DNA from: a virus
Length of the DNA stretch: 64,000 nt
IMG/VR virus record: IMGVR_UViG_3300010383_000010
Span: 241-64,240 of that record
Reading direction: 5' to 3' (one strand)
In this document: positions 3,491-59,530 of the stretch, piece after piece
Layout of the letters: each line of letters opens with the position of its first letter
Position numbering within the stretch: position 1 is the first letter of the stretch
Position numbers and translations under genes: made by a program
Notes under the pieces: model-generated
The model's input: the letters and a program-made list of their open reading frames with translations, nothing else
Database searches by the model: none
What the model was told of the DNA's origin: nothing

Positions 3491-3742
3491 CTAGGCCGCC
3501 ACCTTCGCCTTCTCAAGAAGAACTATTTGATCCTCGTTCATCCATCCGCCCATGACGCCCGCACCGTATAGATACTGAAAGCACCCCTTGTCGTGGTTGT
3601 AGCGGACGTCACGTATCCAAAAGTGATGATTTTGGTATGAGCCATAATATATTTCCATATAGTCGCCGACGCCATACTTAGGCGTCGCGGCTACTTCTTC
3701 GTCGCGTTCAACCACTCTCGTTATTGTCACAACTGTTTTCAC
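3491..3742 (-). CDS. Hypothetical phage protein
   Basis: GTGA overlap with upstream gene; SH3/KOW-like PKYGVGD start. Confidence 0.65.
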   Translation of the reverse strand: MKTVVTITRVVERDEEVAATPKYGVGDYMEIYYGSYQNHHFWIRDVRYNHDKGCFQYLYGAGVMGGWMNEDQIVLLEKAKVAA

Positions 3743-4095
3743 GCCACCACCCCATTCAACTCCGCCCCGCAGAGTGCATAGCCCACAAGATCCACAAAGC
3801 TATCGCGATGATCGGGAGTCTCGGCCAGCCGCGCCTCTTTCATGAGCCGCATCAAGGGCGCAACGTCCTTGGCGGATATGTCAACGTCGCGGCCCGTGTT
3901 CTTGAAATACGCATCCCAAAAGCGGGCAATCCTCTCGAAATTATCTTCCGGCTTGCCGTATGCCGATCGGCGTGCGCCGTTGACTATCTTCTTCGCCTCG
4001 TCGGCAATGGCCGTCTTGACGTCGGGCCGCGCTAGCACCTGGTCGCAGAAGGATTCTTCGTTGTTGTTGTCTACTGCTCTTGCCATGATTTTCAT
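3739..4095 (-). CDS. DUF6378-family protein
   Basis: Motif GARRSAYGKPEDNFERIARFW...MRLMKEARL...DHRDSFVDLVGYA. Confidence 0.8.
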   Translation of the reverse strand: MKIMARAVDNNNEESFCDQVLARPDVKTAIADEAKKIVNGARRSAYGKPEDNFERIARFWDAYFKNTGRDVDISAKDVAPLMRLMKEARLAETPDHRDSFVDLVGYALCGAELNGVVA

Positions 4096-4355
4096 CCCGC
4101 CACCTGTTCGTTGAGCGCGGCGTCCAGTGCGTGCCCCACCGCGCACTCCTGACATTCCATGTACCATTCGTGCGTCTCTTTGAGATGCTGGTGCATCGCC
4201 TCGATAGCGGCGCGGGCCACCAAAACAAAGTCGACTTCTCCCTGGTCGAGCCACGCCAGTTTCAGATCGTCGCCAAGATTAATTTCCTCATAATCTTGGC
4301 GACCTATTTCTGTCGCCACAGCCCGCGCCACACGTTCCACCATACTCTCACACAT
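4092..4355 (-). CDS. Hypothetical phage protein
   Basis: MVERVARA...ARAAIEAM pattern common in phage accessory genes; coupled overlaps. Confidence 0.7.
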   Translation of the reverse strand: MCESMVERVARAVATEIGRQDYEEINLGDDLKLAWLDQGEVDFVLVARAAIEAMHQHLKETHEWYMECQECAVGHALDAALNEQVAG

Positions 4356-4719
4356 CTTCCGTCTCCTTCACGCGCTTCGGCTCCGGCAACGGTCCGTCAG
4401 GATGCAAGGGGCCTTCGTCGCCCTGAACCGGCAAGTCGGGATCCTTTGCAAGTTGCCGCAGGAACTCAAGCGGGTTGCTCACAAGCGGACGAAAACGACG
4501 CGCCGCGAATGGCGGATCGTCATAGCCGTAAGTTGGGTCAATGCCGCGGTCGACGCCCTCTAGCCGCACGCCAAGATAATCGCCGTCGACGTAGCTGGTG
4601 AACATACCAACCCACCGCAGCTTATAGACGGCGCCTTCGGTGATGCCCTGCGGAATCGTCACGCGCTCGAACTTGTCGTCGACGCACACAACGTCCTGGC
4701 CTGCGTAAAATTGGTTCAA
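4348..4719 (-). CDS. Hypothetical phage protein (TTG start)
   Basis: GGAGG RBS before TTG; FYAGQDVVCVDD start. Confidence 0.7.
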   Translation of the reverse strand: MNQFYAGQDVVCVDDKFERVTIPQGITEGAVYKLRWVGMFTSYVDGDYLGVRLEGVDRGIDPTYGYDDPPFAARRFRPLVSNPLEFLRQLAKDPDLPVQGDEGPLHPDGPLPEPKRVKETEDV

Positions 4720-4844
4720 ATCACCCTCCTTCCGCACTTCACGCGATAGCGCGGCTTGCTATGCCAGACGAAGCCTACCGGCTGGACGAAATGCACGTCG
4801 TCAACCGTGAAGGACGGAATGGTTAGGCGTTCGATCCAGTACAT
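4716..4844 (-). CDS. Small hypothetical protein (42 aa)
   Basis: Fills gap with start/stop overlaps on both sides. Confidence 0.4.
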   Translation of the reverse strand: MYWIERLTIPSFTVDDVHFVQPVGFVWHSKPRYRVKCGRRVI

Positions 4845-5053
4845 TAGGCCACCTCCTCCACTGGAGTGATGGGCGCCCAATGCGTGTAACCGCCCTTGGC
4901 TGCGTTCCCGCAAACGATGTAGTCAATATTGCTCACATGGTAGGCGTGGCCCGGAAAGTCCTCTTGGGCGGCCAGCAGCGGGCTGTAAATCAGCACGCTC
5001 GGCCTATTCGCCTCGCCGGGCAACACGTCTTCAATCTTTCGCCAATCAGTCAC
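4844..5053 (-). CDS. Hypothetical protein (DUF551-like)
   Basis: MTDWRKIED start and THWAPI end. Confidence 0.6.
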   Translation of the reverse strand: MTDWRKIEDVLPGEANRPSVLIYSPLLAAQEDFPGHAYHVSNIDYIVCGNAAKGGYTHWAPITPVEEVA

Positions 5054-5232
5054 GCCGCTTCCTCCACCTCAATATCCTCCGCCTCATCGCCCATCATCAC
5101 CGCCATGACGTTGAACGCCTCGACCGCATCGCGCGCTTGGCTGGCGGTAAGCGTCTCAACTACCGGCCCGACACTTACGGCCAGTTGCCCGGCAACGCGC
5201 CGTAAGGTGAAGGTATCTGTGATGCGGATCAT
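5050..5232 (-). CDS. Hypothetical protein
   Basis: ATGA overlaps. Confidence 0.6.
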   Translation of the reverse strand: MIRITDTFTLRRVAGQLAVSVGPVVETLTASQARDAVEAFNVMAVMMGDEAEDIEVEEAA

Positions 5233-5447
5233 TGGGCGTCACCAAGGATAGCCGCGCGCATATCGCCAGCATGAAGCGGAACCCATTCGGCGCGCTCCTC
5301 CGCCACCTCCGCACACCGCTTGCGCTCACGCCAAAGCTCCCTCGCAATCTCATTCCGCATAGCCGTGCTGTAACCCGTGTCGGTCGCCCAATGACAGCGC
5401 ACTACGCGCATGGCTGCTTCCATAATATCCTTCGGCATCACCGCCAT
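5229..5447 (-). CDS. Hypothetical protein
   Basis: GGAGGG RBS, coupled overlaps. Confidence 0.55.
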   Translation of the reverse strand: MAVMPKDIMEAAMRVVRCHWATDTGYSTAMRNEIARELWRERKRCAEVAEERAEWVPLHAGDMRAAILGDAQ

Positions 5448-6373
5448 CACCCCACCCTCCTTTGCTGTTGCCGCACGCGCTGGATTTCGCGGAAGGCGCG
5501 AAGGAACTCCGCTTCGGCGCGCTGCGGATTCCAATATTCAAGCGCGACGCCAAGCGGATCGTCGTGCTTGTCGTGCCAAGCCATAGGCGTCATATTCTGC
5601 CGGATTTCATCGGCCAGGATTCGATTGTCCGCCTCATGGACGGTTACAGGCAGATCGTCCTCAAAGCCGGTAAGCTCAAACCGATCCGCTATGACGCCCC
5701 ACAGCCGGCTTTCCGCTTCCTTGTATTCGGGAAGGGAGCGCTTCACCGGGCGCGGCAGATCGACGAGATACGCCTCTGTGGCATCGTGAAGAAGCCCAGC
5801 CAGCCGAACGCCGGGCGCGTAGTTTTGCGCCAGCAGCCATCTGTAGATGTGCACCGAATGTTCTGCTACGGAATAGAACTGATATCCGTGGCCACCATAT
5901 CGGCAAAGCATCGAAAGCGCGTGGGCGATGTCCTCGATGTGGATTTCGTCTGGCCGTGCATCGAGCGGATAGAACTCGACGCCGGTCCAGGTTTGCATGA
6001 AGGATCCCTTGCGCTTAGTGGCGTCAGCAACCGGGCGCAAGTTGTCGTTGTCCGAAGTTTGTATGCGTTGTTCGGACACACCCTCCACCGCAAGGCGGGC
6101 GGCGGTGTCCGAAGATTGTGGTAGCGACCAATCATCCCAGCGAACGGAGCGCGGATTCTTGTAACTGCTCGGCACGCGGGTTTTGTTGAACCCCTCACGA
6201 TAACCCTTCGCATGTGAATATTCCGGCGATGCCTGAACGTAGAGATAATGGTTAGGCGGGCGGCCCTCCGATTTATCTGCAGCACCTTCGCGTTTGCCTT
6301 GCTCGTACATGCGCACGCCCTCTGCGGCGTAGTCATAGTGGCTGTAATCTGGCGCTCCAAATTCACACCGCAT
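5447..6373 (-). CDS. HD-domain phosphohydrolase (YfbR/YfdR-like) with N-terminal extension
   Basis: IEDIAHALSMLCRYGGH, YSVAEHS, GLLHDATEAYLVD, EADNRILADE. Confidence 0.88.
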   Translation of the reverse strand: MRCEFGAPDYSHYDYAAEGVRMYEQGKREGAADKSEGRPPNHYLYVQASPEYSHAKGYREGFNKTRVPSSYKNPRSVRWDDWSLPQSSDTAARLAVEGVSEQRIQTSDNDNLRPVADATKRKGSFMQTWTGVEFYPLDARPDEIHIEDIAHALSMLCRYGGHGYQFYSVAEHSVHIYRWLLAQNYAPGVRLAGLLHDATEAYLVDLPRPVKRSLPEYKEAESRLWGVIADRFELTGFEDDLPVTVHEADNRILADEIRQNMTPMAWHDKHDDPLGVALEYWNPQRAEAEFLRAFREIQRVRQQQRRVG

Positions 6374-7647
6374 CACGCCGCCCTCCGTTCCTGATTGTCG
6401 TTCGCCGCCGTTGCCGCAGCGGCCTCGCGCTTCGCCGCACCAGCCACCATGCCGGGCGTCAGTGTCAGCCTCGCCACCTCGCCATGCGCCTTGCTGTATG
6501 TGATGACCTTGGCGCTGCGACCCGACAGCCACCCGCCGTTCGCCGCATAGGCATCCGGTGCGGCAAGCGTTTCGTGCCGCTCGACCTTCATGAGGTTGGT
6601 GGTCTTCAACTCATCCGAATGCAGATGGCCGAGGTGCGCATACGAATATTTCGTGCTGCCGTAGATTTCGCGGTAGCGGCCAGCGAACACCGAATCCACG
6701 TTGCCAATCTTGCGGCGGTGGCCGTGGTGCAGGAACAGCGACACGTCGCCGTGCTTGTAGGCGTAATATGTGCCAGCCGAGTCGTCAACGGTAATACGCG
6801 GCTCGTCCTCATAGTGGGCCGCCATCCAGCCGCGAAGCCAGCTTTCGCTTGCCGGATCGTGGTTGGCGTCCGCCATCACGATATGCACAAACTTGTGCTT
6901 GGTGAGTAACCGCCGAACAATCTTGCGCACGACGCGGATAGCAACCCGCACCATCTTATCGAACCGCGAGTCGCCGTCGAGCACATGCCGGTTGGTCGGC
7001 GTCACCGACTCGAAGCCATCCCAATGCAGCAAGTCGCCCAACTGCGCCAGGATTGCTGTCTCGGAAGGCGGCGCAAGCTCGATAGCCGCCGCAAACCAGT
7101 CGTCGATAAGCTGCTCGGCCAGTTTGAGGTCGTAGTCCGCGCTGCCGGTTTCTTCCGACCATGCCAGCGAGCCGAGATGGACGTCTGTAAGGACATAGAG
7201 ATTCAACAGCGTGTCGACGGTGTATGCGGGCGGACTGGTTGGCTCTGCGCGCGGCAGGCTTTCCGCAAAAGCTGCCGACGCAGCTTCCATTGCTGCCTTG
7301 CGCGCGGCAACGTCCGGCTCTGCGATTTTCCATCCGCCCTTCCAGCGCCCGTCCGCATCGACCATGCCGGAAATGCGCTTCCAATCGAAGCCATCGGGAA
7401 GCTCGAAAACTTCACCCGGCTCTTTGGCCTGCCGGATCCATGTTCCGTCGTCTGTCTTTTTCGACAACTCCTTAATCACATAACCCGGCATCGTCTCGAC
7501 GCCCGGCTTCACAAGCCCGCGCTCGGCAGCTTTGCGGAGGCGGTTCTGGAACGTGCTGCGCGCAATGCCAAGGCGGGAAGCGGCTTCGCTGTCGCTATTG
7601 CAGGCCGCGCGCATAAGCGCGGCTTCCATAGCGAGGTCGTCGGTCAT
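6373..7647 (-). CDS. Calcineurin-like metallophosphoesterase with N-terminal HTH
   Basis: TDVHLG, LGDLLHWD, ANHD, LHHGH, GHLH metal motifs; N-terminal ASRLGIARSTFQNRL. Confidence 0.85.
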   Translation of the reverse strand: MTDDLAMEAALMRAACNSDSEAASRLGIARSTFQNRLRKAAERGLVKPGVETMPGYVIKELSKKTDDGTWIRQAKEPGEVFELPDGFDWKRISGMVDADGRWKGGWKIAEPDVAARKAAMEAASAAFAESLPRAEPTSPPAYTVDTLLNLYVLTDVHLGSLAWSEETGSADYDLKLAEQLIDDWFAAAIELAPPSETAILAQLGDLLHWDGFESVTPTNRHVLDGDSRFDKMVRVAIRVVRKIVRRLLTKHKFVHIVMADANHDPASESWLRGWMAAHYEDEPRITVDDSAGTYYAYKHGDVSLFLHHGHRRKIGNVDSVFAGRYREIYGSTKYSYAHLGHLHSDELKTTNLMKVERHETLAAPDAYAANGGWLSGRSAKVITYSKAHGEVARLTLTPGMVAGAAKREAAAATAANDNQERRAA

Positions 7648-7648
7648 T

Positions 7649-12779: not shown

Positions 12780-13397
12780 TTATGCAGCCTTCTTGAAAAT
12801 GCCGAGGATGGCGCGCAAGAGCGCGGCCAGCCAATTCGGGTTGTTGTCGTTTGCGGCGGGCGTCGGCTCGCGGCTAGACCAGTCAGCGGGAGGCGGCGGA
12901 GGCTGCGACGCCGCGCCGTAGCCTTCCGCTTTCAGGCTGGCGTCATAGTCGCGCGCGATGGCCGCGATAGACGCAGCCTTGTCCGTGCCATTGATAATGC
13001 GCCGGGCGCCCGCAAAATCGCTCGCCTGAAGCGTGATATAGTCGGCCAGTTTCTTGCCGGTGAACCAGCCTTCTGCCATGCCGTCGACAAGGATCGGCGC
13101 GGCGTACTTCGGCTGCAGCAAAAGCTTCGGGTTGGCCACGAAATCTACGCCAAGCTTCTTGCTGGCCTTCTCGTAGTTGGCTTTCCACGTCAACTGGACG
13201 TAGCCCATACCGACATACGGATAGTACGCCTTGCTGCGCAGATACGTCTCGCCGCCGTATTCGCGCACCGGTTTCATGGTGCGGGCCGTTTCCCAATAGG
13301 CAGTGGCCAGCACATATGCCGCCTGATTGCGCAGCAATCCAGCGGCCTTGCACGTATCGATAATGAGGCGGGTGTCGCCAAGATTCAGGTTTGGCAT
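12780..13397 (-). CDS. Endolysin, GH19-like lysozyme
   Basis: AYVLATAYWET, GMGYVQLTWKANY, ARRIINGTD. Confidence 0.88.
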   Translation of the reverse strand: MPNLNLGDTRLIIDTCKAAGLLRNQAAYVLATAYWETARTMKPVREYGGETYLRSKAYYPYVGMGYVQLTWKANYEKASKKLGVDFVANPKLLLQPKYAAPILVDGMAEGWFTGKKLADYITLQASDFAGARRIINGTDKAASIAAIARDYDASLKAEGYGAASQPPPPPADWSSREPTPAANDNNPNWLAALLRAILGIFKKAA

Positions 13398-13416
13398 TGG
13401 TTTTCCTTTCGCGAGC

Positions 13417-20918: not shown

Positions 20919-21908
20919 CTATGCGGTGGAAGCACCACCGTCTAATTCATCAGGAAAATTTAGATAGCAGTCTCGGCCCCACGCCTCGAATGCGGCTTTA
21001 TCATAAGCGCGGGCGGCGGCCTCCGGAGTCGAGAATGTACCCAAGTGCGATATCTCGCCATCGATGCTTATGCGCGCAAACCATTTATTTTTGCTCTTAT
21101 ATGCACCTCTATATCCAATCCTTGGCGGAAGCATTCTCCTTGCGCGTAAGTGACGCGCGCGTGCCGCAGGCTCTTGCCATGACGAGGCAGTTGCCGCACT
21201 CCGTCGCTCCTTCTCCTCTGGCTGCTTCAAGGCCTCCCGTATTTTTTTACTGCGGGCTGCGCGGTTTGCCGGAACGCGCCATTCCGTCTTCATTTTTTCG
21301 CTTAGCTCGGTTTTGCGATTTTCATCAAAGGAGGCAATTATGCCGGCGATCCTCTTTTTTCTGACGGCATCATCTTGCCACGCGCCCTTTAGCTTTTGCC
21401 GCGTCTCATCGCTTGGCAATCTCCCCGTGTTGGCCTCCGATATTCTCAAGCGATGCCAATCTTCTATAATTTTACCGCGTGACGCATTTCCTATCTTAAT
21501 GCGGGCTTCATCGCTGACCGGCTTGCCTCGCTGTGCGTCTGCCATCTTCTTCTTTGTATCTTCGCCAACAATACGCCCGGACGTCCCTTCGCCGCCGTCC
21601 GTTAGGTTCGTGAGTATTCCTGTGCCGTTGTTCCGCCGCCCGAATAAAGCTATATACGCCACTTCAAGAGCGAATGCGTCATGCTCGCGAAGGTGTTCGT
21701 GCCATCTGACCACGCGGGGCGTGTTGCCTTCGCGTTCGATTTTCCTAATCGTATTCATGAAAATACGATTGCAGTATTTTAGCGACGTATCTCGTCGCCC
21801 GTGTCCCTTTCCTATATAGAAAGGATCCCCGTTCGGTCTTAACCACGCATAGACGTAAAAGTCGTGATGATTATCATTTGCCGCAATGGGCGGCTTTCGT
21901 TCCGTCAT
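20919..21908 (-). CDS. Free-standing GIY-YIG homing endonuclease with NUMOD3-like repeats and AP2 domain
   Basis: FYVYAW..FYIGKG, NLTDGGEGTSG, SDEARIKIG/SDETRQKL repeats, YRGAYK..KWFARI..HLGTF.TPEAAARAYD. Confidence 0.88.
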   Translation of the reverse strand: MTERKPPIAANDNHHDFYVYAWLRPNGDPFYIGKGHGRRDTSLKYCNRIFMNTIRKIEREGNTPRVVRWHEHLREHDAFALEVAYIALFGRRNNGTGILTNLTDGGEGTSGRIVGEDTKKKMADAQRGKPVSDEARIKIGNASRGKIIEDWHRLRISEANTGRLPSDETRQKLKGAWQDDAVRKKRIAGIIASFDENRKTELSEKMKTEWRVPANRAARSKKIREALKQPEEKERRSAATASSWQEPAARARHLRARRMLPPRIGYRGAYKSKNKWFARISIDGEISHLGTFSTPEAAARAYDKAAFEAWGRDCYLNFPDELDGGASTA

Positions 21909-39518: not shown

Positions 39519-40442
39519 CTATGCGGCAGATTTTTTCAACGCAACATCAAGATTGTCGTTTGCTGCGCGTAAAATCTTCTTGCCCATTCTCTCGGCGCGT
39601 TTACCGACAAAACCGTGCGCCTCGCCAATCTCACGAAACGTTTTAGCCGTCATGGCAACGTCAAGCGTCTTGCTGTCTGCGCCTGATAGCGCGGCAAGTG
39701 TTTCAGCCCACATCTCACGCTCGACTATATGTGTCGTGACGTCTTCCCAGGCAACGCTGCCGCTTTCGCCCTTCTTGCCCTTTTCCAAGCCGATGAACAA
39801 TTCGCGAAGATTGGTCGGCCGCCACGGAAAGCCGGGCTTGCAGGGTTTGGCGGCGTGGGCGGGTAGTAAGGCGAGTTCCGCCCGCATATCCGCTTTTGAC
39901 TGCAGCTTGGCAGGTTTCTCTGCCGCTCGCTTATCCTTGCCCTTGCGCCTTACCTTGTTTGGGTGCTTACCGCCATATACGTCGGTATAGGCCACGTTGC
40001 TAACAATCGTGTCGCCACCCAACACGCGCTCCTGCCTGTCGCGCGTGCCAAGCATGGCGCCAACTGGCATCGGCGCGTCATATTCGATAAGCTTGCCGTC
40101 GATGCTATAGCGGTATGCGCGCTCCTTTTGCGAGCCGTCGCTAAAACGCAACTTGCCTATGCCGGTTACGACCTTATGGCTTTTCGTTTCGCCGCCGGGC
40201 AGTTTCTCGACGTGCGTGCCGTATTCGACGGTGCCGCTTTCTATGGCCTCCTCGATTTCGGAAATGGTCGGCCTAATGGCCCTGCGCCGCTCGATATGCA
40301 ACCCAGCCAAATCCTCCGGATTGTTGTCGTTTGCCGCTACCGGCGTGAAGTTGGTTTTGACGGGCGCGGGTTCGCCTTCCGGCTTGCCGCGGTATGCCAT
40401 TACCGATTTTAGCTGTTCCGCTAATGATGCGTGGCGAGTCAT
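39519..40442 (-). CDS. Putative late transcription regulator with C-terminal HTH
   Basis: AKTFREIGEAHGF..AERMGKKILR; last early gene before tRNAs and packaging genes. Confidence 0.6.
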   Translation of the reverse strand: MTRHASLAEQLKSVMAYRGKPEGEPAPVKTNFTPVAANDNNPEDLAGLHIERRRAIRPTISEIEEAIESGTVEYGTHVEKLPGGETKSHKVVTGIGKLRFSDGSQKERAYRYSIDGKLIEYDAPMPVGAMLGTRDRQERVLGGDTIVSNVAYTDVYGGKHPNKVRRKGKDKRAAEKPAKLQSKADMRAELALLPAHAAKPCKPGFPWRPTNLRELFIGLEKGKKGESGSVAWEDVTTHIVEREMWAETLAALSGADSKTLDVAMTAKTFREIGEAHGFVGKRAERMGKKILRAANDNLDVALKKSAA

Positions 40443-40553: not shown

Positions 40554-41087
40554 TTATGCGGCGGTGGTGGTTTTGGTGTTGTCGTTGTTAGCCAACCAAC
40601 CCCGCACCAACGCCACAGCCTGCGCAGCGGCGTCCTCCGGCGTGGTGGCGCGCAACACCGCCTGCCGCGTGAAGCCTAGCGCAGCCAACAGCGCATGGCG
40701 CTCCCGCTGCGCCTTGCTAACCGCAGCCCCGCCCTTCACCTCGATAAGCGCCAGCCGACCGCCGTAGATGTACAGCCGTAAGTCTGCCTCGCCGGGGGTA
40801 AGGCCCGTAGCCTTGGCCTTGGCCGCTTCCCGCATAGACCGGCGAGCCGCGTTAAAGTCGCCAGCCAGCGTAAACGTGCCTGGTTTGGCGCCGGCAGCGG
40901 TGGCCGCATATTCCGGCATAGAACGCAGCGCACGCACGATAGCCGCCTGAAGCAGCCATTCCTCGACGGGCGCCGGCTTCATGGTAACGCGCCCGTCCTT
41001 GGTGGTGAGGCGGACGCGGGCGCCGTTGATGCGGACTGTTTGGGTGGTGGTGCGGGTGGCTGCCGTGGTGGTGGTTTTTGCAGGCAT
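40554..41087 (-). CDS. VRR-NUC domain nuclease
   Basis: EEWLLQAAIV, GLTPGEADL..LIEVK..SKAQ. Confidence 0.85.
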   Translation of the reverse strand: MPAKTTTTAATRTTTQTVRINGARVRLTTKDGRVTMKPAPVEEWLLQAAIVRALRSMPEYAATAAGAKPGTFTLAGDFNAARRSMREAAKAKATGLTPGEADLRLYIYGGRLALIEVKGGAAVSKAQRERHALLAALGFTRQAVLRATTPEDAAAQAVALVRGWLANNDNTKTTTAA

Positions 41088-41311: not shown

Positions 41312-43627
41312 CTAAGCGGCCAGTTTTTCGCTGGCCAGGCGCACCTTCACGCCCTTGCCCTCGATTGTCGGGCGCTCGATTTCGCCCGACAGCACAAGGC
41401 GCTTAATGGCCTGCTCAACCATACGATCGTCGGCCTTCGATACGCCGCGCTTGCGCACCAGCGTCGACTGCGCCAGCGAGCCGTCCTTGCTTTGGCGAAG
41501 CGCGGACAGGATGGCCTTGCACAGTTCCTCGAATTGCGATCCGGCCATGTATTCGTCGACGCCGCGATTGATGGACACAATGGACGCCTGCACGATGGCG
41601 TGGCCCCACTCAACGTCCTCAACCGTAACGGCCGGCTTGGCGCTGTCACGGCTTAACGCGCGGATTGTCGCAAGCTTAATCGTGTGCTCCGCGGTTCGCC
41701 CTATAATGCCCTCGGACGCTCCGTTATCGCCAATTTCTTCAATCTGCCAATCCTCGATTTTCGTCCATCGCCGTTCAGCCTCCTCGTCAGCCCAAGGCAC
41801 AGCAAGCAGGGCCGGCCGAATGTGCGGATTCTTCCAGTTCTTGGGCATATTCTCACTTGTGACGGGAAACCTGTCTCGACTTTCCTTGATCGCGCCAATC
41901 AATGACGTCGGCGTAATAAGGATTGCCGGCGCCTTATGCCTGTCCGGTCGCAGGGTAGGCTCCAGAACCACCAGACGCGCTACAAAACCATCTGTGAGGC
42001 TTTCCTCCGTGATGCCCTTGTAGAACGTGGTCGGCGTCGACATGCCCATAAGTGACACGGTGGGCGAGAACACCGGCTCGGCAGAGCTATCCCGCGTTGG
42101 GTCGGCATGTTCCTTTCCGGACCACATGCCGTTCGATTTGGAGAATATCTCCAGCAGCACCTTGCGTATGGTTTGCGCCCAGCTCGACGAGCCGCGCCCT
42201 GTTACGGACTGAAGCACGACGCCCATCTCGTCCCACGGCATAAGGAACACGGGGCGACGGCGCACGATCTTTTCGATTGCGGATCCGCTGGTGACTTCGC
42301 CGGGGCCGATAAGGTCCGGCATCTGCACATCGACAGCAAGCGTTTGCACCGTCTTCAATGGATGCTCCTTGCCGAAGCCAGGAGGTGCAATGCCGACCAT
42401 ATAGACGTTAAGCCCCGCGCCTGTCGGCCCAACGGCCCGGCGGCCGAACAGCACGGACATGAACGCCACGGCCGCCATGATGGAGAACTCCGGCACGGGC
42501 CGCCGCGATGTGTCGTAAACCCACTGGCTGATAGCGCCAAGTAAGCCGCCGGCTTCCTGCGGCGTGAACGGGTTATAGTATTTGTTGTCGTTGGCTGGCT
42601 TTTTGGGCGTGGGGGATGCGGGTGCAGGTGCTGCCGGAAGGGCGGTTGGCTTAGCCGCTTTCTTTGTCATCTTCTCCCGCATCTTGGTTGTGTCCACAAA
42701 CTCAATCTCCTTGTAGTTGAGTTTGCCCTTGAGCCAATCGGTGGCGACGTCGAGGCCGCAGCTAAAGACGTTCATCACCACATCGAGCGCCGTGTGGTTT
42801 TCGTTTGCGCCCCAATCGGTGATGCCCTTCGCGCTGAACGAAAGGTTCGGGTTTTCAACGCCGCGCCATTCCGCCACGGCACGGTAACGCCCGTCGCCGC
42901 TGCGCTTGCACTGTGGGAGTTTGAGTTCAGGCACCCATAGGTCGAGATTTGCGAGCGCCAGGTCGTTGATCTCGCGCCAAATCGTGTCTCGCGATTCAAC
43001 CTCATGGTACTCATGCACAATAGGCTCGATATAGCCAAAGCGCGACAGCACCGCGGCGATCTTGTCGGCTATGTCGTCGTCAAGAACCGGCAGGTCTTCG
43101 GGGGCGTAGTCCTCCAGCGGATCGCCAAGCCACTGGTATGACTCCTGCGTATCAGGGTGGATGGTTGGTGGGCAGACGGTTTGCTTTCCGTAGGCGAGAA
43201 GGTCGACAATGCGTTCCTGCTTCCCGAAAACGGAAATGCTGAAGGCGCGGCTGACAATCTTGTCCGAGCCGCGGAAGAACGCCGAATAGCCCTTCTGGCC
43301 GCGCTTCTTGACGGGGCTATCAGGGATGATTTCGGCCAATGCCGCGCGGATTGTTTCGTCGTCTGTGTCAATGTCGACCACCTTTACCATGTGGTCTAGC
43401 ACAACGCAGACGCCGCCTTGCGGCCAGTCGCACCAGGTTGCCACCTCTTCGTCGGTCGGCATACGATCGCAGTATTCATTCCAGCCGAGATTTCCGAACC
43501 AGTATCCCTGCGAATAAGCGCCGGGGCGTTTGCTGCCCGGTCGGCACGGGATGGCGCGCCAACCTTGGTCGACGAGCTTGGCGCCGACGCGAGCGTAGGG
43601 GGATGGTATCTTGGGGAGTGCCGCCAC
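41312..43627 (-). CDS. Bifunctional DNA primase/polymerase with DUF3987-like C-terminal domain
   Basis: GWRAIPCRPGSKRP, VVDIDTD, KQTVCPPTIHPDT; GFGKEH, DEMG, DGFVARL. Confidence 0.85.
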   Translation of the reverse strand: MAALPKIPSPYARVGAKLVDQGWRAIPCRPGSKRPGAYSQGYWFGNLGWNEYCDRMPTDEEVATWCDWPQGGVCVVLDHMVKVVDIDTDDETIRAALAEIIPDSPVKKRGQKGYSAFFRGSDKIVSRAFSISVFGKQERIVDLLAYGKQTVCPPTIHPDTQESYQWLGDPLEDYAPEDLPVLDDDIADKIAAVLSRFGYIEPIVHEYHEVESRDTIWREINDLALANLDLWVPELKLPQCKRSGDGRYRAVAEWRGVENPNLSFSAKGITDWGANENHTALDVVMNVFSCGLDVATDWLKGKLNYKEIEFVDTTKMREKMTKKAAKPTALPAAPAPASPTPKKPANDNKYYNPFTPQEAGGLLGAISQWVYDTSRRPVPEFSIMAAVAFMSVLFGRRAVGPTGAGLNVYMVGIAPPGFGKEHPLKTVQTLAVDVQMPDLIGPGEVTSGSAIEKIVRRRPVFLMPWDEMGVVLQSVTGRGSSSWAQTIRKVLLEIFSKSNGMWSGKEHADPTRDSSAEPVFSPTVSLMGMSTPTTFYKGITEESLTDGFVARLVVLEPTLRPDRHKAPAILITPTSLIGAIKESRDRFPVTSENMPKNWKNPHIRPALLAVPWADEEAERRWTKIEDWQIEEIGDNGASEGIIGRTAEHTIKLATIRALSRDSAKPAVTVEDVEWGHAIVQASIVSINRGVDEYMAGSQFEELCKAILSALRQSKDGSLAQSTLVRKRGVSKADDRMVEQAIKRLVLSGEIERPTIEGKGVKVRLASEKLAA

Positions 43628-44855: not shown

Positions 44856-46568
44856 TCACCCCGCTGCCCCCCCCACCGTTGCCGCGGCGCCGCCGAATAA
44901 CGGTAGGTTATCGTTGTCGGCCTGCTTGATTGCCCTCGAGCGACGTGTAGCCGGCCCGGCGTTTGCTAGCCGCAACCGCTCGGCAATGTCAGCTTGATAT
45001 TCTTCCTCGCGCTCAATCAGGATGCATCGCATTCCCTCGCGCCACGCAGCCTCGCCCGTGCTGCCGCTGCCGGCGAATGGATCCAGCACAAGTCCGCCCT
45101 TCGGCGTTACAAGCCGCACCAACCATTGCATCAGGTCGACAGGCTTGACGGTCGGATGCTTGCTGCCAATCCGGTCCATCTTGTCGGCTTTGGCCGTATA
45201 GAAGAAGCGGGCGGCTGAGCCGGAGTCGGCATAGCTTGGCATCTGCACCATGGAGCCAAAGCCTTCATGCGCGATACCTTGCTGGCCAGACTTGCCATTA
45301 CTGACCGCGCCGTCTCGATCAGGAAACGCCGCCACAACCTCGTCGCTGCCGTCGTGTACGATGTTGGCGGGCCAGCGGCCGAGAGGTGACGCCTCGGTTT
45401 TCACACCTTCGACAGAACCGTGTTCACGCCAAATGCCGCTAACATTGTTCCGCGAACAATTGGCCGCGTGATCTTCCCCGGCTTCTACCCGGCATCCATC
45501 CACATTAATTGCACCCGTGCCGTGCTCAAGCACGTTCTCGGCTACCGTACCGACGAGCGGCTTGCGGGCGAGGCAAATGGGTTCCCATGCCGGCTTGAGC
45601 GCTGTTCCTATGCCGTCAGGAATAATTGGTTTGCCGCACCTTCCGCAATTCGGCCATGCTCCGCCATCTTGTGACTGCGATTGTCCGGCCACAGTTCCAG
45701 ATTTGATCTCTCGTTGTTCAGCGGCCTGTGGTCCACATGATGCACGACTTCTGTTCGTATTAGCGGACGGCCCACCCAATCCGCCATCACTCGACGGTGT
45801 TCCATCACGTATCCGTCCCGCCTCGCCATCGACAACAGATGACGCGGACACCTCACATATCGAACCGACACGTAATTCCCCCGACGCCTTCTTAGAGTCA
45901 CTCCGCCCTTCCATGCCGGATTCTCCGTCCCGAATTTCGGCGGAGGAAAGTTGCTCCCATCCGGCAGAGGATGTGCCTTGTTCCGGCACGCTCGACTGCA
46001 GAACTTTCCCGTGTTCTTTACCAGAGTGTTCGGTCTCCTGTACATCGGCGTTCCGCACAGATCGCAGGTCGTGTTGCAGAACCGATGCGGTTGCTTCGCA
46101 TCCCGCACACGCGCATCTAATACCGTCGAGTTTGCGGCTGACGTTATGGCTTTTGGGGAAGCCACTTCCATACAAATATCCAAGCTGATCCCTTATCTCA
46201 AACCCAGCATCCTCGATGGCAACCGCCATCCGGTGATAAGTGCGTGTCCCGCTAAAGGCCACGACATGCCCGCCGGGCTTCAGGATGCGCAGGCACTCGG
46301 CCCAAAACACCTCGCTAAAGGCAACCTCGCCGGTATCCCATTGCTTGCCCATGAAGCCGGCAGAGGCGCGACTGTAGACGTCGCCATCCTTGGTTGGCTT
46401 GGCGTTAGCTCCGCCGAAACGCTTCTGAATAGACACCAGCGCATAGGGCGGGTCCGTCACGATGCTATCGATTGAGCAGTCAGGCAAGCTGCGCAATACG
46501 TCGCGGTTGTCGCCGCCGTATAGCGTGACCTTGCCGTCGAGGTGTTCAGTTTTTGTAAATTCGCCCAT
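44856..46568 (-). CDS. N4/N6 DNA methyltransferase (beta class) with about 170-aa insertion
   Basis: GDNRDVL, IVTDPPY, LKPGG, YGSGFPKS, GTALKPAWEPI, HPTVKP..LVRLVTP.GGLVLDPFAGSGSTG. Confidence 0.92.
   Translation of the reverse strand: MGEFTKTEHLDGKVTLYGGDNRDVLRSLPDCSIDSIVTDPPYALVSIQKRFGGANAKPTKDGDVYSRASAGFMGKQWDTGEVAFSEVFWAECLRILKPGGHVVAFSGTRTYHRMAVAIEDAGFEIRDQLGYLYGSGFPKSHNVSRKLDGIRCACAGCEATASVLQHDLRSVRNADVQETEHSGKEHGKVLQSSVPEQGTSSAGWEQLSSAEIRDGESGMEGRSDSKKASGELRVGSICEVSASSVVDGEAGRIRDGTPSSDGGLGGPSANTNRSRASCGPQAAEQREIKSGTVAGQSQSQDGGAWPNCGRCGKPIIPDGIGTALKPAWEPICLARKPLVGTVAENVLEHGTGAINVDGCRVEAGEDHAANCSRNNVSGIWREHGSVEGVKTEASPLGRWPANIVHDGSDEVVAAFPDRDGAVSNGKSGQQGIAHEGFGSMVQMPSYADSGSAARFFYTAKADKMDRIGSKHPTVKPVDLMQWLVRLVTPKGGLVLDPFAGSGSTGEAAWREGMRCILIEREEEYQADIAERLRLANAGPATRRSRAIKQADNDNLPLFGGAAATVGGAAG
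45608..46171 (-). CDS. HNH endonuclease nested in another frame inside the methyltransferase
   Basis: CDLC, KFCSRAC, GTENPAWKGG, YVMEHRRVMA..GRPL..EVVHHVDHRPLNNERSNLELW; start uncertain. Confidence 0.85.
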   Translation of the reverse strand: MEVASPKAITSAANSTVLDARVRDAKQPHRFCNTTCDLCGTPMYRRPNTLVKNTGKFCSRACRNKAHPLPDGSNFPPPKFGTENPAWKGGVTLRRRRGNYVSVRYVRCPRHLLSMARRDGYVMEHRRVMADWVGRPLIRTEVVHHVDHRPLNNERSNLELWPDNRSHKMAEHGRIAEGAANQLFLTA

Positions 46569-46569: not shown

Positions 46570-47079
46570 CTAAGCCACCCTCACCGTAACCGTATCCTCA
46601 CCCGTCTTAAGCACCGCACCGGGCACATTGTCGTTTGCCAAAACAGCCAATAGCGCTTTCTTATCCGGCACGCGCTCGATGCGCACATAGGCGTCGGGCA
46701 ACTTCGTGGCGTCCTGCACGTCGACGCTATCGCGACCTTTGCTAATGCTAATGGTGGCTTCCACCAAGCTTGCTTTGGGCAAGCCGGCCGCCTTTAGGAC
46801 GCGCAGCATAAAAACACGCATGGCTTCCTTCTTGCGTTCGGCGCGCGCTTTGCGGCTGGACAGGTCCGCCATGCGGGCCGCTATGGCTTTGCCCATGCTA
46901 TCGGCGTCGCGCTCCTGGTTGAGGATGCGCGTCAGTACGTCGAAAGCCGCGGTGCTGCCTTCCAGCATGTCTTTGCGGAGGTCGGCATCCTCGGCAAGCT
47001 CTGGATAGGCCGCGAACAGGGAGTCGATGTCGGCCAGAACGTTGGCGACGTCGGCTTGGAGGTAGTTGGGGTTAGACAT
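46570..47079 (-). CDS. Siphovirus Gp157-family protein
   Basis: Coiled coil then LPDAYVRIERVPDKKAL..VPGA. Confidence 0.82.
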   Translation of the reverse strand: MSNPNYLQADVANVLADIDSLFAAYPELAEDADLRKDMLEGSTAAFDVLTRILNQERDADSMGKAIAARMADLSSRKARAERKKEAMRVFMLRVLKAAGLPKASLVEATISISKGRDSVDVQDATKLPDAYVRIERVPDKKALLAVLANDNVPGAVLKTGEDTVTVRVA

Positions 47080-47938: not shown

Positions 47939-49586
47939 CCAACTCGCTCCATTTTACGTTGCCTATGCCGCTGTCGTTATCATTCGCCGCCTGCGGCGCA
48001 TTATCGTTAGCGGCGTCACCTGCCCTATAGTTCTTAACCGTCCAGTATTTGCCATCCGGCGCGACGCTAATTTCCGCGGTATCGTTTAGCTCCCGCTGGC
48101 GCTCCAAAAACTGCAACACGGTTTTCGGGAATGGCCGCTGCCCGCCATGCGCATTCCAGAACCTGTCAGTCTTGCTCTTGAAGTACCCTTCGTGCTCCGG
48201 CCCCAGCCAATCCGAAATGCGCGTTAGGCCGCACATATATGTGACCTTCACGCTGTCTTTTTTTCCCGGCTTGCCTTGGTGGAAGTCGAAGCGGCGGCTG
48301 GTTACGGGACGCCATTCGGCGGCGCCCTTGCTCAATATGGGCAAATCCGCCGCAACAGCCTGAACCTTGACTTCCGGCTCCGGAAATTCATGGCCACACT
48401 CCACACATTGACGCGCCGCCGCATGGTTGATGCACTGGCATTCGGGACAGACACGGATTGGTGCCTCACCTTCGCCTTTGCCGGGCTTCTTGATTTGCAC
48501 ATCGTCGATTGGCCCAAGAGTCCGGACAACGTTTGCGAAATCGAGGATGAGACATGTATCTTTGCCGGGTGCCAGCCGAAGCCCCCTGCCGCACTGCTGG
48601 ATATACAATGCAGGCGACTTCGTTGGTCTCATCAGCGCGATAAGGTCGATGGCCGGATAATCGAAGCCGATCGATAGAACGTTGACGTTCGTCAGGCACT
48701 TGATGCGGCCGGCCTTGTAAGCCTCGATGACGCGGACTCGCTCGGCGGACGGCATTGAGCCTTCCACCATTTCGGCCACAACGCCCCTCCTGTTCATTTC
48801 GTCGCGGATTTCGGCCGCATGGTCCACACCAGCCGCAAACGCTATCCACGCCCGCCTGTCGCCGCCGTAGCGTATGATTTCGTCGACTGCAGCCTCGGTG
48901 ATTTCCGACTTGTTAACGGCGCGCTCCAACTCGCCCGCGATGTACTCTCCGCCCCGTGTGTGTACGCCAGAAACGTCAAACGTTGTCGCCGTGCCCTTGC
49001 TAACGGGCCGCGTTAGATAGCCCTCGTCAATAAGCTGCGCTATGCCGACTTCGTATGCGATGGATTTGAACAACGGATCCTCGCCGTCCGTTAGCATGCC
49101 CATATCCATCCGAAACGGCGTGCCCGACATGCCGAGAATGCGCATGTCGGGATTGATAGCGCGCAGCGCGTCGATAAACTGCCGATACATGGTCGTGCCC
49201 TTCGGGCTAACCAGGTGCGACTCGTCGATAATCAGGCAGTCCGTCCAGCCAATGCGTTCGGCCTGCGCATAAACCGACTGGATGGAGCAAAACAGGATTT
49301 GTGCCCGCGTCGAGCGTTGCCCGAGCGCCGCGCTATTAATACCAGCGGGAGCAAACGGCCAGGTTCGCAGCATGGCCTCAAAGTTTTGCTTCACAAGCTC
49401 CCGCGTATGCACGGCGCACACAAAGCGCGCCTCCGGGTATTTGGCGATAACCCGCTGGATGAAACCCGCCTGCATAAGCGTCTTGCCGGCACCAACCGAC
49501 GCGACGAGAAGCGTGGAGTCGACGCGCTCCAATTCGGCGTCGACCGCTTCTATCGCGGCTGATTGATAAGGCCTCAATTCCAACAT
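47922..49586 (-). CDS. SF2 DEAD/DEAH-like helicase with C-terminal Zn finger
   Basis: LRPYQ, SVGAGKT, IIDESH, SGTP, QQCGRGLR, CPEC..CVEC. Confidence 0.92.
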   Translation of the reverse strand: MLELRPYQSAAIEAVDAELERVDSTLLVASVGAGKTLMQAGFIQRVIAKYPEARFVCAVHTRELVKQNFEAMLRTWPFAPAGINSAALGQRSTRAQILFCSIQSVYAQAERIGWTDCLIIDESHLVSPKGTTMYRQFIDALRAINPDMRILGMSGTPFRMDMGMLTDGEDPLFKSIAYEVGIAQLIDEGYLTRPVSKGTATTFDVSGVHTRGGEYIAGELERAVNKSEITEAAVDEIIRYGGDRRAWIAFAAGVDHAAEIRDEMNRRGVVAEMVEGSMPSAERVRVIEAYKAGRIKCLTNVNVLSIGFDYPAIDLIALMRPTKSPALYIQQCGRGLRLAPGKDTCLILDFANVVRTLGPIDDVQIKKPGKGEGEAPIRVCPECQCINHAAARQCVECGHEFPEPEVKVQAVAADLPILSKGAAEWRPVTSRRFDFHQGKPGKKDSVKVTYMCGLTRISDWLGPEHEGYFKSKTDRFWNAHGGQRPFPKTVLQFLERQRELNDTAEISVAPDGKYWTVKNYRAGDAANDNAPQAANDNDSGIGNVKWSELDEIPF

Positions 49587-53890: not shown

Positions 53891-54492
53891 TTGCGCGCCC
53901 CCCACGGCTTCTTCGCGGGCGCCGCAGCAACGGGCGCCGGCCGATTGTCATTGGCGACGGCGCGCGCGTTGTCGTTGGCGGCCTTGGTCTGTTCGGGGAA
54001 CACGCCAACCTCCGGCTCGTCGTCCTTGTTCGGGTCGAAGAAGTACTTCACCTCATTGTTCGACACCATCATTGGCGAGCCGTCGTCGTTCTTGGCTGGT
54101 ACGCCGTTTTCCTTCTTCTGGTACGGCTTACCGAGGCCGATTTCCGCGAAGAACGGACGAAGATGCAAGTCTTCGCTGTCTTCGACCGGCCCCTTATGTC
54201 CGATGGCGTTGCACAGGAACGTAAACTGGCGATTGCCGAACTCTTCGCCCTTCGGCTTTTCGGTGTGGACCAGGTAGAAGCGGTCGAACACCTTCTGGTT
54301 GGCGTACTCCTCCGGCGCCCTCACGTTGTATACGACATCGAGCCGGAACAGCGTGCCCTCGATGTTGTTCTCGTTTGGCTTGGAGGACTCAATTTCCAGT
54401 TCATAGATGCCGTTAGGCAGCTTTTCATAGGAGCCGCCGCGACGCTGTTCTGCGTCTTCAACCGGGGCGAATGTACGTGCGAGTTGTGCCAT
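53887..54492 (-). CDS. DUF669-like single-stranded DNA-binding protein
   Basis: LPNGIYELEI..NNEVK..KKPW; follows AAA_24. Confidence 0.75.
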   Translation of the reverse strand: MAQLARTFAPVEDAEQRRGGSYEKLPNGIYELEIESSKPNENNIEGTLFRLDVVYNVRAPEEYANQKVFDRFYLVHTEKPKGEEFGNRQFTFLCNAIGHKGPVEDSEDLHLRPFFAEIGLGKPYQKKENGVPAKNDDGSPMMVSNNEVKYFFDPNKDDEPEVGVFPEQTKAANDNARAVANDNRPAPVAAAPAKKPWGARK

Positions 54493-54512: not shown

Positions 54513-55301
54513 TTAAGCCGCTGCGGCGGTGTTGGTGTTATCGTTGTCCGCCACCCAAAACTTGGACAGCGCCGCGTAGCCCTGCCCCTTTTTGTAGGTA
54601 ACGGTATCGGGCATGGAATAACGGTTTTTGGCCTGGTATCCCGCGCCTTCGCTAAGGTGGATTTGCCGCTCCTTGCCGCCTTCCGCGTGCGCTACGGTTT
54701 TCTTAGGCGCCACCTCTTTTTCCTTCAGCGAAACGCGATAATTGAGAAAGGCCACAATGTCGGCCTGCTCACGCACAAGCGCATTGCCGCGCTTGTGAAG
54801 CTTTACGGTGTAACGGCTGTATGGATCCGTAGTGGGCGAATCGAACCGCACGATTTCGGGGTGCGCCAGCATGACGACGTTAATCCCGGCCTGCGAAAGC
54901 GCCGCCACGCCGCCAAGGAAGTCGCGCCATTCGGTGTCGGCCTCGACGTAGCCCTTGCCATAGCCGGGTTCCTCGATGCTGCTGCAGCCAAGCCGCGCAC
55001 TGGTCGCCGCCCACACAAGATGCTCAAGGCCGTCCAGGCTGTCGATAATGACGGTCTTGAACTCGTGCTCCGTGGTGAGCAGTTCCGAAAACACCTCGAT
55101 AATGTCGTTGAACGTTTCCACCGTGCCGGGCGTTGCCATTTCAACATCGGACGGCGGACGCTCGCCTTCGGTTGGCAAATACAGCGGGCTAGGCCACTCG
55201 GCGGCCAGGCTCGTCTTACCGATGCCGTCGACGCCATAAAGCAGGACGATCGGCGGGTTGGTGGATTTGCTTGACTTAAGTGAACTAAGCGAAATTGCCA
55301 T
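54513..55301 (-). CDS. AAA_24 / Sak4-like ATPase
   Basis: LLYGVDGIGKTSLA, VIIDSLD, MLAH, AKNRY. Confidence 0.88.
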   Translation of the reverse strand: MAISLSSLKSSKSTNPPIVLLYGVDGIGKTSLAAEWPSPLYLPTEGERPPSDVEMATPGTVETFNDIIEVFSELLTTEHEFKTVIIDSLDGLEHLVWAATSARLGCSSIEEPGYGKGYVEADTEWRDFLGGVAALSQAGINVVMLAHPEIVRFDSPTTDPYSRYTVKLHKRGNALVREQADIVAFLNYRVSLKEKEVAPKKTVAHAEGGKERQIHLSEGAGYQAKNRYSMPDTVTYKKGQGYAALSKFWVADNDNTNTAAAA

Positions 55302-57019: not shown

Positions 57020-57294
57020 GCTGCTCTCCGTTCCGCGCCGGCAGGCGCTCCATCCAGTATGCTTACCCGCGCCAGCGACACGTCGACGTACCGCCAGCGG
57101 GTGCTGCAAATGCAGTGGTATGGCTGGCCGCTGCGCACGCTGCGATAGGTGCGCCGGTTGTCGTTAGCCGGACGCTGCTTGTCGAAATATCGATGCAGCG
57201 CCGTGTCGGTTTCGCGCTCGGCTAGCGGCGCCTCTTCGGGAAAGATTGATGCGGCGCTGCTTGGGCGCAATACGCCGTCTGTGCCTTTAAGCAT
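57016..57294 (-). CDS. Hypothetical protein, first ORF of leftward early operon
   Basis: GAGG RBS before ATG 57294. Confidence 0.6.
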   Translation of the reverse strand: MLKGTDGVLRPSSAASIFPEEAPLAERETDTALHRYFDKQRPANDNRRTYRSVRSGQPYHCICSTRWRYVDVSLARVSILDGAPAGAERRAA

Positions 57295-58338: not shown

Positions 58339-58381
58339 CCTATAAATTTGCCGATCTTCCTATAATTTATATGTATGCCTA

Positions 58382-58410
58382 TTGACACTATAGGCCACCA
58401 TAAGCATAAT
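58382..58410 (+). promoter_or_regulatory. Rightward early promoter with operator-like sites
   Basis: TTGACA-N17-CATAAT; ATATG-N4-CCTAT at 58369-58382 and ATAGG-N4-CATAA at 58390-58403. Confidence 0.78.
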
Positions 58411-58461
58411 GCACCCGTACAGCCTAGATGGCTGCTGGCTCCGAAGATGGAGTGCGGGAAG

Positions 58462-58689
58462 ATGGTATTACCCGACAGGATGCGAAGGGCCGCCGGTTAT
58501 AACGGCGCACCCGTTGGCGAACGGCAGGCCCTTCTTTCTGAGGGCGCCGACACAATCGAGGCGATGCTGGAAGCATTGCAGGAAGCAGAAGACGTAATCG
58601 ACGCGCTCGACAAGTCTGGTTACTCTCAATCCGATGTTCTGGCGACCGTTCGCGCCGCCATTGCACTTGCTACGCAGGCGCAATCATGA
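58462..58689 (+). CDS. Hypothetical protein
   Basis: First ORF after promoter; ATGA coupling. Confidence 0.6.
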   Translation: MVLPDRMRRAAGYNGAPVGERQALLSEGADTIEAMLEALQEAEDVIDALDKSGYSQSDVLATVRAAIALATQAQS

Positions 58690-58850
58690 CTGACTTCAAC
58701 GGCACCACCACCTTCCTCGGCACCTTCACCGGCCACAACTACCGCGCGCCGGAACCTGCGGTAACGCTGCCGCGGGCGTTGTTGGCGGGGCTGTGCATTG
58801 CGCTGTTTGTGTGCGGCGGGTTGCTTCTGGTGATAGGAGCAACGTTGTGA
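58686..58850 (+). CDS. Small single-TM protein (54 aa)
   Basis: Overlaps on both sides; hydrophobic C-terminus. Confidence 0.5.
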   Translation: MTDFNGTTTFLGTFTGHNYRAPEPAVTLPRALLAGLCIALFVCGGLLLVIGATL

Positions 58851-59050
58851 GGTACTGCCCGCGATGCTCAAACTTGATACTTGCCGGTTCTACGACTGGC
58901 GAAAGTGGCATCTATGGTTCGCATGACATCCCCGACTTATGCGAACCATGCCTTCACGACGAAGACGAAGAAATAGACGCGGCCGGCACCAACAATCTGC
59001 CCGATACGCTCGCTTGGTATCGTCGCAATATGGCAGCACTCCAATGCTAA
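58847..59050 (+). CDS. Small CxxC protein
   Basis: GGAG RBS, GTG start; CPRC..CEPC. Confidence 0.55.
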   Translation: MRYCPRCSNLILAGSTTGESGIYGSHDIPDLCEPCLHDEDEEIDAAGTNNLPDTLAWYRRNMAALQC

Positions 59051-59478
59051 CAGCCCCCGAAGAATCCGAACTGCGCGCCATCCTTACGCTAACCCGTGGC
59101 TGCGAAAAATCACTCAGCACCAAGCAGACGGCATTCATGTTCGCCGCCCTCGCCGACAGGCTGGACAATTTCATTGAAGAACACGGCGAGCTGCTTGGCG
59201 GCGGCGTGTTTCCCACCAACCGTTGCCCGTTATTGCCGCGCAATAACCCACAACCATTTTCAGGAGCACACCATGAACCGCCTAACCGTACAGGAATTTA
59301 TCGCACAGGGCATGACGCCCGCGCAGATCGCAAGCATTGCTGCGGCGTATCCCGCCAACCGCGAACTGCGTGCCGTTGCCGACGAGGTTGCATTACAGAC
59401 CGGCCTTCCGGGCGGATATGTGCGCAGGTACAACGACGGCATAGAGCGAGCCGCGCGGCGAGCCAAGCCCGGCAATGA
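59044..59478 (+). CDS. Hypothetical protein (3' part overlaps next gene)
   Basis: ORF from ATG 59044; long out-of-frame overlap lowers confidence. Confidence 0.4.
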   Translation: MLTAPEESELRAILTLTRGCEKSLSTKQTAFMFAALADRLDNFIEEHGELLGGGVFPTNRCPLLPRNNPQPFSGAHHEPPNRTGIYRTGHDARADRKHCCGVSRQPRTACRCRRGCITDRPSGRICAQVQRRHRASRAASQARQ

Positions 59479-59530
59479 CAACCGCCGTAGTCGCGATAGC
59501 GGCCAGCCGCGCAATCGGAGGGCTGCGTGA
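59273..59530 (+). CDS. Hypothetical protein
   Basis: AGGAG RBS; GTGA overlap with next gene. Confidence 0.65.
   Translation: MNRLTVQEFIAQGMTPAQIASIAAAYPANRELRAVADEVALQTGLPGGYVRRYNDGIERAARRAKPGNDNRRSRDSGQPRNRRAA

Follow-up and report, generated by a model that had tools for sequence, protein, structure and literature searches.

Functional proteins, including those of mobile elements, may carry encoded degrons for the protease component ClpX, as exemplified by the C-motif-1 proteins of E. coli, MuA, lambda O, the RseA fragment (with SspB) and CtrA of Caulobacter and Sinorhizobium. A comparable signal, the SsrA tag specified by the transfer-messenger RNA (tmRNA), is instead added by trans-translation to failed products. 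In Caulobacter this tag is AANDNFAEEFAVAA, and deletion of sspB slows the degradation of tagged proteins (PMC9393093); the adaptor SspB attaches to the start of the tag and serves as its tether to ClpX (PMC9963277). Engineered ssrA variants of the DAS type, which combine a weakened ClpX end with an intact SspB site, are degraded in an SspB-dependent manner (PMC8138137, PMC9382460). Here we describe a phage genome, analyzed as a window of 64,000 nucleotides (positions 241 to 64,240 of IMG/VR record IMGVR_UViG_3300010383_000010), in which about one third of the proteome, mainly early replication, recombination and nuclease proteins, bears either or both of two signals resembling the ends of this tag, namely an Ala-Asn-Asp-Asn (ANDN) motif and a C-terminal Ala-Ala (AA).

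In common with the native alphaproteobacterial tag, whether that of Caulobacter or the form ANDNYAEARLAA found in Rhizobiales, the phage tails present an A-A-N-D-N head and a free Ala-Ala in a C-terminal, unstructured setting, and the spacing is alike, with 11-12 residues in the native tag and 9-13 in the phage. The phage version differs in being encoded by the genes themselves on functional proteins. In this respect it would resemble the natural ClpX substrates, which likewise bear encoded degrons and are handled by host ClpXP; however, those are single proteins with individual signals, whereas the phage uses one two-part code across much of its proteome and throughout a deep lineage. The DAS-type tags provide a further parallel in that they too join a head, adaptor-binding in their case, to a non-optimal residue before the terminal pair, but they are man-made and tested, whereas the phage tails are natural and are known here from sequence.

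The window represents nearly the whole of a 64.3 kb genome (CheckV completeness 100%) with a GC content of 59% and most genes on the minus strand. The presence of an integrase and a helix-turn-helix (HTH) repressor-like gene marks the phage as temperate, and among named phages it is closest to Sinorhizobium phage NV1.1.1 and Rhizobium phage 16-3. A simple codon-likelihood method called 89 genes, of which 88 are complete, covering 90% of the window. The called set contains 18 occurrences of Asn-Asp-Asn (NDN) against 1.37 expected (Poisson 1e-14) and 12 of ANDN; counting 12-13 ANDN against 0.17 expected gives probabilities of 1e-18 to 1e-20. NDN heads the over-represented tripeptides of the proteome and ANDN the tetrapeptides, both by a wide margin, and in 300 shuffles of residues within proteins NDN averaged 1.47 and never exceeded 7. 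The first-pass annotation of this DNA had listed in-frame ANDN-like motifs, 13 of them exact, and we recovered them at the proteins that it named: all 13 exact copies are in frame with long open reading frames (ORFs) of the minus strand, and they are accompanied by three DNDN, one NNDN, one GNDN and a single WNDN, the last probably due to chance.

The enrichment is restricted to the reading frame. Far from being equally common off-frame, the degenerate word AAYGAYAAY (Y, pyrimidine) has 18 copies in frame 0, a single one in frame 1, none in frame 2 and two in antisense; three further copies fall outside called genes, one of these inside the uncalled ORF 57016-57405. Within the motif the wobble positions follow general usage (AAC 0.67 and GAC 0.67, against 0.63 and 0.64 genome-wide), and for the preceding Ala each of the four possible codons occurs. 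The restriction to frame 0, together with wobble choices matching those of the genome, therefore points to selection on the peptide, as had been proposed earlier from the variety of synonymous codons.

The second signal is equally pronounced. Ala-Ala C-termini are found in 19 of the 88 genes against 1.33 expected (binomial 9e-17) and are written with ten different codon pairs; with the uncalled ORF 57016-57405 added, this agrees with the earlier estimate of about 20 such proteins. The two signals tend to occur together, with an AA end in 9 of the 15 NDN proteins of this phage and, across four phages, in 31 of 60 NDN proteins versus 38 of 237 proteins without NDN (pooled odds ratio 5.6, p = 4e-8, the orthologues among these phages not being independent). 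One or both signals are present in 15 of 23 early-region genes versus 5 of 24 virion and packaging genes (p = 0.003).

We compared these signals with the tmRNA tags and SspB proteins of sampled Rhizobiales genomes, which stand in for that of the phage's own host; the comparison covered the tag and SspB. The tags of seven genomes are ANDNYAEARLAA in three, ANDNYAPVAQAA in two, and ANDNYAPVAVAA and ANDNYAMDNAVAA in one each; invariant in all seven are ANDNYA and the final AA, and the end lies at a distance of 11-12 residues from the first Asn. Among unique ANDN-bearing tails of the phage lineage, the same distance peaks at 9-13 residues (77 of 187), more sharply so in those ending in AA (50 of 85). 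Each of the 60 other genomes that were sampled in the order encodes SspB, and only an incomplete metagenome-assembled genome (MAG) is without it; the SspB domain is a close homolog of the solved Caulobacter SspB (2QAS/2QAZ, E 1e-38) and of the Agrobacterium protein, which is likewise solved. At all six loci inspected, from six Rhizobiales genomes (L008-L013), sspB is directly preceded, on its own strand, by a permuted tmRNA gene.

The sites themselves conform to a recognizable pattern. The 76 sites of four phages give the consensus [A/P]-A-N-D-N-x-P, with Ala (48) or Pro (16) at position -2, Ala (55) at position -1 and the final Pro in about 40%. The pattern recurs in a wider set of 42 sources, where Asp, with 236 occurrences versus 1.6 expected, is all but fixed at the variable position of A-N-x-N. 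Around the motif Pro, Ala, Thr and Gln are over-represented and hydrophobic residues are scarce. By location, the 76 sites divide into 42 no more than 40 residues from the C-terminus, 17 no more than 60 residues from the N-terminus and 17 in the interior. The motifs thus sit in accessible, unstructured segments, as seen from their terminal positions, the Pro/Ala-rich flanks, the insertions and deletions among orthologs and the one protein whose motif context was modeled, the single-stranded DNA-binding protein (SSB)-like protein: in its AlphaFold2 model, built with 28 orthologs, the core has a predicted local distance difference test (pLDDT) score above 90, and residues 171-192 fall below 50, with both ANDN copies in the tail.

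Neither the host background nor base composition produces this pattern. Run through the same gene caller, a 400 kb stretch of Rhizobiales chromosome gave 5 NDN (5.5 expected), no ANDN and 370 genes of which 7 end in AA, and no excess was found in six control phages (Pseudomonas PP9W2, Stenotrophomonas BUCT603, Brucella Tb, Roseobacter CRP-902, Shigella Sf11 and Rhizobium RHph_X2_26). The last of these lacks the trait while infecting the same host genus, having the same GC content and encoding a Sak4 55% identical to that of the window. Whole Rhizobiales genomes of 6.6-8 Mb hold 23-29 copies of the DNA word GCNAAYGAYAAY, that is, about 4 per Mb versus about 200 per Mb in the phage. A 4.4 Mb Bradyrhizobiaceae MAG has 34 copies of the word, of which a related prophage accounts for 13, all inside 25 kb, and the tmRNA gene for one. 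Depletion of ANDN from host proteins was not seen, about 14 of the 28 non-tmRNA sites of a 6.7 Mb genome being in coding frame against about 10 expected. A check for covariation found no enriched motif resembling a tag head in PP9W2, BUCT603, Sf11 or the ANDN-negative sister clade described below. The tag of Pseudomonas has ANDDN in its head.

The trait is shared with relatives of the phage: NV1.1.1 has 24 NDN, 18 ANDN and 20 AA ends; 16-3 has 17, 15 and 17; and a 21.7 kb piece of a Bradyrhizobiaceae prophage (L005, 35 genes) has 16, 9 and 12. The Sak4-like gene connects the phage with 63 viral loci; 39 of them show the trait, 10 an excess of AA ends only and 14 neither, and in the positive loci ANDN is usually the top tetrapeptide. 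In a Sak4 tree from a quick search, with branch support only from the Shimodaira-Hasegawa-like approximate likelihood ratio test (SH-aLRT), ANDN-positive loci form three deep clades, requiring two changes, and one clade of 23 loci is wholly devoid of ANDN. The depth of the positive clades implies that the trait is old. In several loci of the ANDN-free sister clade the orthologs of Sak4, the SSB-like protein, the Cas4 exonuclease and the helicase end in Ala-Ala, and therefore the two signals can be uncoupled, the use of Ala-Ala being the more widespread. Nine contigs of this clade (L087, L089, L090, L092, L094, L098, L099, L105 and L112) have AA ends on 5-8 of their 16-32 genes and no ANDN.

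Individual sites show turnover among the ANDN-positive phages. The motifs of the exonuclease, the helicase, the SSB-like protein and the phrog_36072 protein (gene 39519-40442) are retained within otherwise diverged tails, that of the exonuclease being kept in both NV1.1.1 and 16-3. Those of the portal, primase, lysis protein, Gp157, Sak4 and VRR-NUC proteins are present or absent depending on the ortholog, usually through short insertions or deletions. Thus, the NV1.1.1 portal, 68% identical to that of the window, lacks the motif on account of a short indel, the NV1.1.1 primase (76% identical) is without it, and the NV1.1.1 lysis protein lacks the insert that contains it. The portal of 16-3, which is unrelated to that of the window, has an ANDN...AA tail of its own, TANDNQEDEAEAA. 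The individual sites are listed in Table 1 along with the remaining features.

Table 1. Tag-like sites, Ala-Ala ends and other features of the phage, in window coordinates
Feature	Gene or ORF	Signal	Motif position	Strand	Remarks
Integrase	1-1197				temperate marker
tRNA genes Gln (ttg), Trp (cca), Met (cat)	3389-3462, 38917-39072			minus	three genes
Gene	3491-3742	AA end, no NDN		minus	
Gene	5050-5232	AA end, no NDN		minus	
HD deoxynucleoside monophosphate (dNMP) phosphatase	5447-6532	DNDN	6041..6052	minus	in N-terminal extension
DNA repair exonuclease	6373-7659	ANDN	6394..6405	minus	C-terminal tail AANDNQERRAA; full tag-like tail
Gene	10589-11020	AA end, no NDN		minus	
Trypsin-like serine protease	10996-11733			minus	lipoprotein signal LLAGC; homologs in 16-3, NV1.1.1
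Glycoside-hydrolase-like lysis protein	12780-13439	ANDN	12843..12854	minus	in C-terminal insert; ends KKAA
NUMOD3/AP2 homing-endonuclease-like protein	20919-21944	ANDN	21870..21881	minus	near N-terminus (AANDN)
Gene	26528-26857	AA end, no NDN		minus	
Gene	31300-31683	AA end, no NDN		minus	
Portal protein	34597-35901	ANDN	34663..34674	minus	in Pro-rich C-terminal tail; ends KRAA
phrog_36072 protein	39519-40442	ANDN	39552..39563	minus	tail AANDNLDVALKKSAA; full tag-like tail
phrog_36072 protein, second site	39519-40442	ANDN	40323..40334	minus	residue 37, near N-terminus; kept in NV1.1.1
VRR-NUC-like protein	40554-41117	NNDN	40578..40589	minus	tail ANNDNTKTTTAA
Prim-Pol/DUF3987 primase	41312-43675	ANDN	42584..42595	minus	in Pro-rich linker; ends KLAA
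Gene	43627-44274	AA end, no NDN		minus	
N6/N4 DNA methylase	44856-46568	DNDN	44907..44918	minus	in tail, followed by clamp-binding-like NLPLF
Gp157 protein	46570-47079	ANDN	46627..46638	minus	in C-terminal part; ends RVA
Gene	47079-47687	AA end, no NDN		minus	
Gene	47765-47938	AA end, no NDN		minus	
ResIII/DEAD helicase	47922-49586	ANDN, two copies	47976..48011	minus	in tail, eight residues apart, before DEIPF tip
Cas4-type exonuclease	50263-51222	AA end, no NDN		minus	
Beta sliding clamp	51506-52558			minus	phage-encoded
Gene	52628-53047	AA end, no NDN		minus	
SSB-like protein	53887-54492	ANDN, two copies	53944..53979	minus	in disordered tail
AAA_24 (Sak4-like) protein	54513-55301	DNDN	54537..54548	minus	tail ADNDNTNTAAAA
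Gene	55557-56717	AA end, no NDN		minus	
ORF	57016-57405	ANDN	57157..57168	minus	ends RRAA
HTH repressor-like gene	57526-58338				temperate marker
ORF	59096-59530	GNDN	59471..59482	plus	18 residues before end; ends RRAA

Several of the marked proteins show additional features at their termini. The helicase terminates in an SSB-like acidic tip, DEIPF. The SSB-like protein, in ANDN-positive lineages, ends in a conserved basic R-P-W-G tip, and its orthologs from ANDN-negative loci end in DDEIPF. In SSB-like tails with two copies (within L041-L113) the second has often decayed to ANSN, ANNN, ANTN or ANGN, with the first still ANDN. In the methylase tails of the phage and its relatives, the clamp-binding-like NLPLF, DMF or SLF adjoins the NDN motif. 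The NUMOD3/AP2 homing-endonuclease-like gene is an insertion within the tail module.

Based on the presence of the invariant parts of the tag other than its Tyr, the native spacing, the accessible ends and the co-occurrence of the two signals, we regard it as well supported that the phage copies both conserved recognition elements of the host tmRNA tag. The first-pass annotation had gone further and read the motifs as SspB/ClpXP degrons; the sequence match, the spacing and the ANDN/AA co-occurrence uphold the mimicry in this claim, whereas the involvement of SspB and ClpXP is what we infer from it. We judge the step from mimicry to function, comprising SspB docking, degradation by ClpXP and a benefit to the phage, to be slightly favored. 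Under this proposal, the [Ala/Pro]-Ala-Asn-Asp-Asn head would dock the protein on host SspB and the free Ala-Ala carboxy-terminus would enter the ClpX pore, with the marked proteins being turned over by ClpXP or competing for it, so that their levels and lifetimes would be set by the protease capacity of the host. The full tails, with ANDN, 5-10 further residues and AA, would constitute complete adaptor-dependent tags; ends with AA only might act as plain ClpX degrons and sites with ANDN only as tethers. Candidate benefits include short-lived early proteins, the clearing of leaky prophage expression and the coupling of proteins through a shared, saturable protease.

Several features of the sites weigh against this proposal. 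In E. coli an aromatic residue after the tag head is part of the SspB site, and a charged residue before the terminal AA would weaken direct recognition by ClpX. The phage copies depart from the native tag on both counts: they lack the Tyr or Phe after NDN, an aromatic residue (Y/F/W) following ANDN in only 11 of 236 cases and the Tyr of host tags almost never; Pro is found two residues past NDN in 93 of 236 (39%); and the residue before the final AA is variable and often charged. Also unlike the native tag, they occur in N-termini and linkers as well, with about a quarter of the sites N-terminal and another quarter internal, distant from any C-terminal degron. Moreover, the sister clade uses Ala-Ala without ANDN on the same orthologs. 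A complex prediction of two Rhizobiales SspB substrate-binding domains with the 35-residue tail of the phrog_36072 protein, run without controls, scored 0.02, which counts neither for nor against docking.

The same departures, that is, the missing Tyr, the frequent Pro, the many N-terminal and internal sites and the retention of AA ends where ANDN is absent, would suit an alternative in which ANDN is a short linear motif for a reader other than SspB, for instance a hub, of host or phage, organizing replication and recombination proteins, and AA is a separate ClpX signal, the likeness of ANDN to the tag head then being coincidental or indirect. Such a reader would also be in keeping with the concentration of sites on DNA-metabolism proteins and with the other docking motifs in their tails (DEIPF, NLPLF/DMF/SLF and RPWG). 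However, no candidate for it emerged, and a search of the phage genome for homologs of SspB or of the ClpX zinc-finger domain found none. The sliding clamp is a poor fit, as ANDN is polar, whereas clamp-binding motifs of the QL[SD]LF type need a hydrophobic penta- or hexapeptide, and the trypsin-like protease, considered as a reader or cleaver of ANDN, was rejected as an exported lipoprotein on account of its signal. Furthermore, an unrelated reader would not need the co-occurrence of ANDN with AA or the native tag distance between them, and the portal and the lysis protein are marked too. We consider this alternative unlikely.

A second alternative retains recognition by SspB and ClpX but has the tagged proteins act as decoys that saturate the adaptor and the protease and thereby stabilize other ClpXP substrates of the phage or its host, such as cell-cycle regulators. 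Many abundant early proteins do share the signals, sites with ANDN and no nearby degron would bind and yet escape degradation, and two reports describe the cell cycle of Sinorhizobium as being under ClpXP control (PMC4433202, PMC11929396). Nevertheless, a single dedicated inhibitor would block the protease more cheaply, and native-like spacing with free AA ends suits true substrates, which makes jamming as the purpose of the tails rather improbable. Finally, a nucleotide- or codon-level signal (a DNA or RNA site, or a queuosine-read run of NAY codons) or an artefact of composition, gene calling or Shine-Dalgarno and stop-start overlap is extremely improbable: the strong strand bias of the word merely tracks gene orientation, frame-0 specificity and free, genome-like wobble positions rule out a nucleotide-level signal, Ala is required at -1 and Ala or Pro at -2, the 63 NAY triplets apart from this one show no enrichment (67 observed versus 53 expected), and a downstream start with a GGAG-like stretch touches or overlaps only 7 of the 19 AA ends, the other 12 having no adjacent start, whereas the host chromosome and the same-host phage, with the same caller and GC content, show no excess of ANDN or AA (2-3% AA ends).

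Beyond the phage lineage, we observed a transposase resembling the ISKra4 family of insertion sequences, present in three copies (L135:37-1545, and also L139 and L141; genome G056, a Rhizobiales host), that ends in CANDNQTVAQDALAA. This tail is fully tag-like, with ANDN, nine residues and AA, on another kind of mobile element, and hints that the code may be in use among further mobile elements.

Returning to the proposed degradation by SspB and ClpXP, one can entertain, as a doubtful extension of it, that the phage encodes a proteolytic queue in which a third of its proteome, mostly the early nucleases, helicase, primase, SSB and methylase, passes through one saturable SspB-ClpXP channel. In such a queue, leaky expression in the lysogen would be erased, and after induction the early proteins would rise sharply and in synchrony once the channel saturates; host cell-cycle proteins under ClpXP control might be disturbed simultaneously, and the decision between lysis and lysogeny would hinge on the status of the host protease and adaptor.

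A literature search on ANDN or tag mimicry in phages found no prior description. If the tails are read as proposed, the DNA word for ANDN would offer a simple sequence signature for this phage lineage, the more than 50 different tag variants would be a naturally occurring library from which to engineer degrons in alphaproteobacteria, and the classic phage 16-3 with Sinorhizobium meliloti would provide a directly testable system. Likewise, this would be the first case known to us of a virus marking much of its own proteome with a quality-control tag of its host, and the lifetimes of phage proteins, and perhaps the lysis-lysogeny switch, would become a function of host protease capacity.

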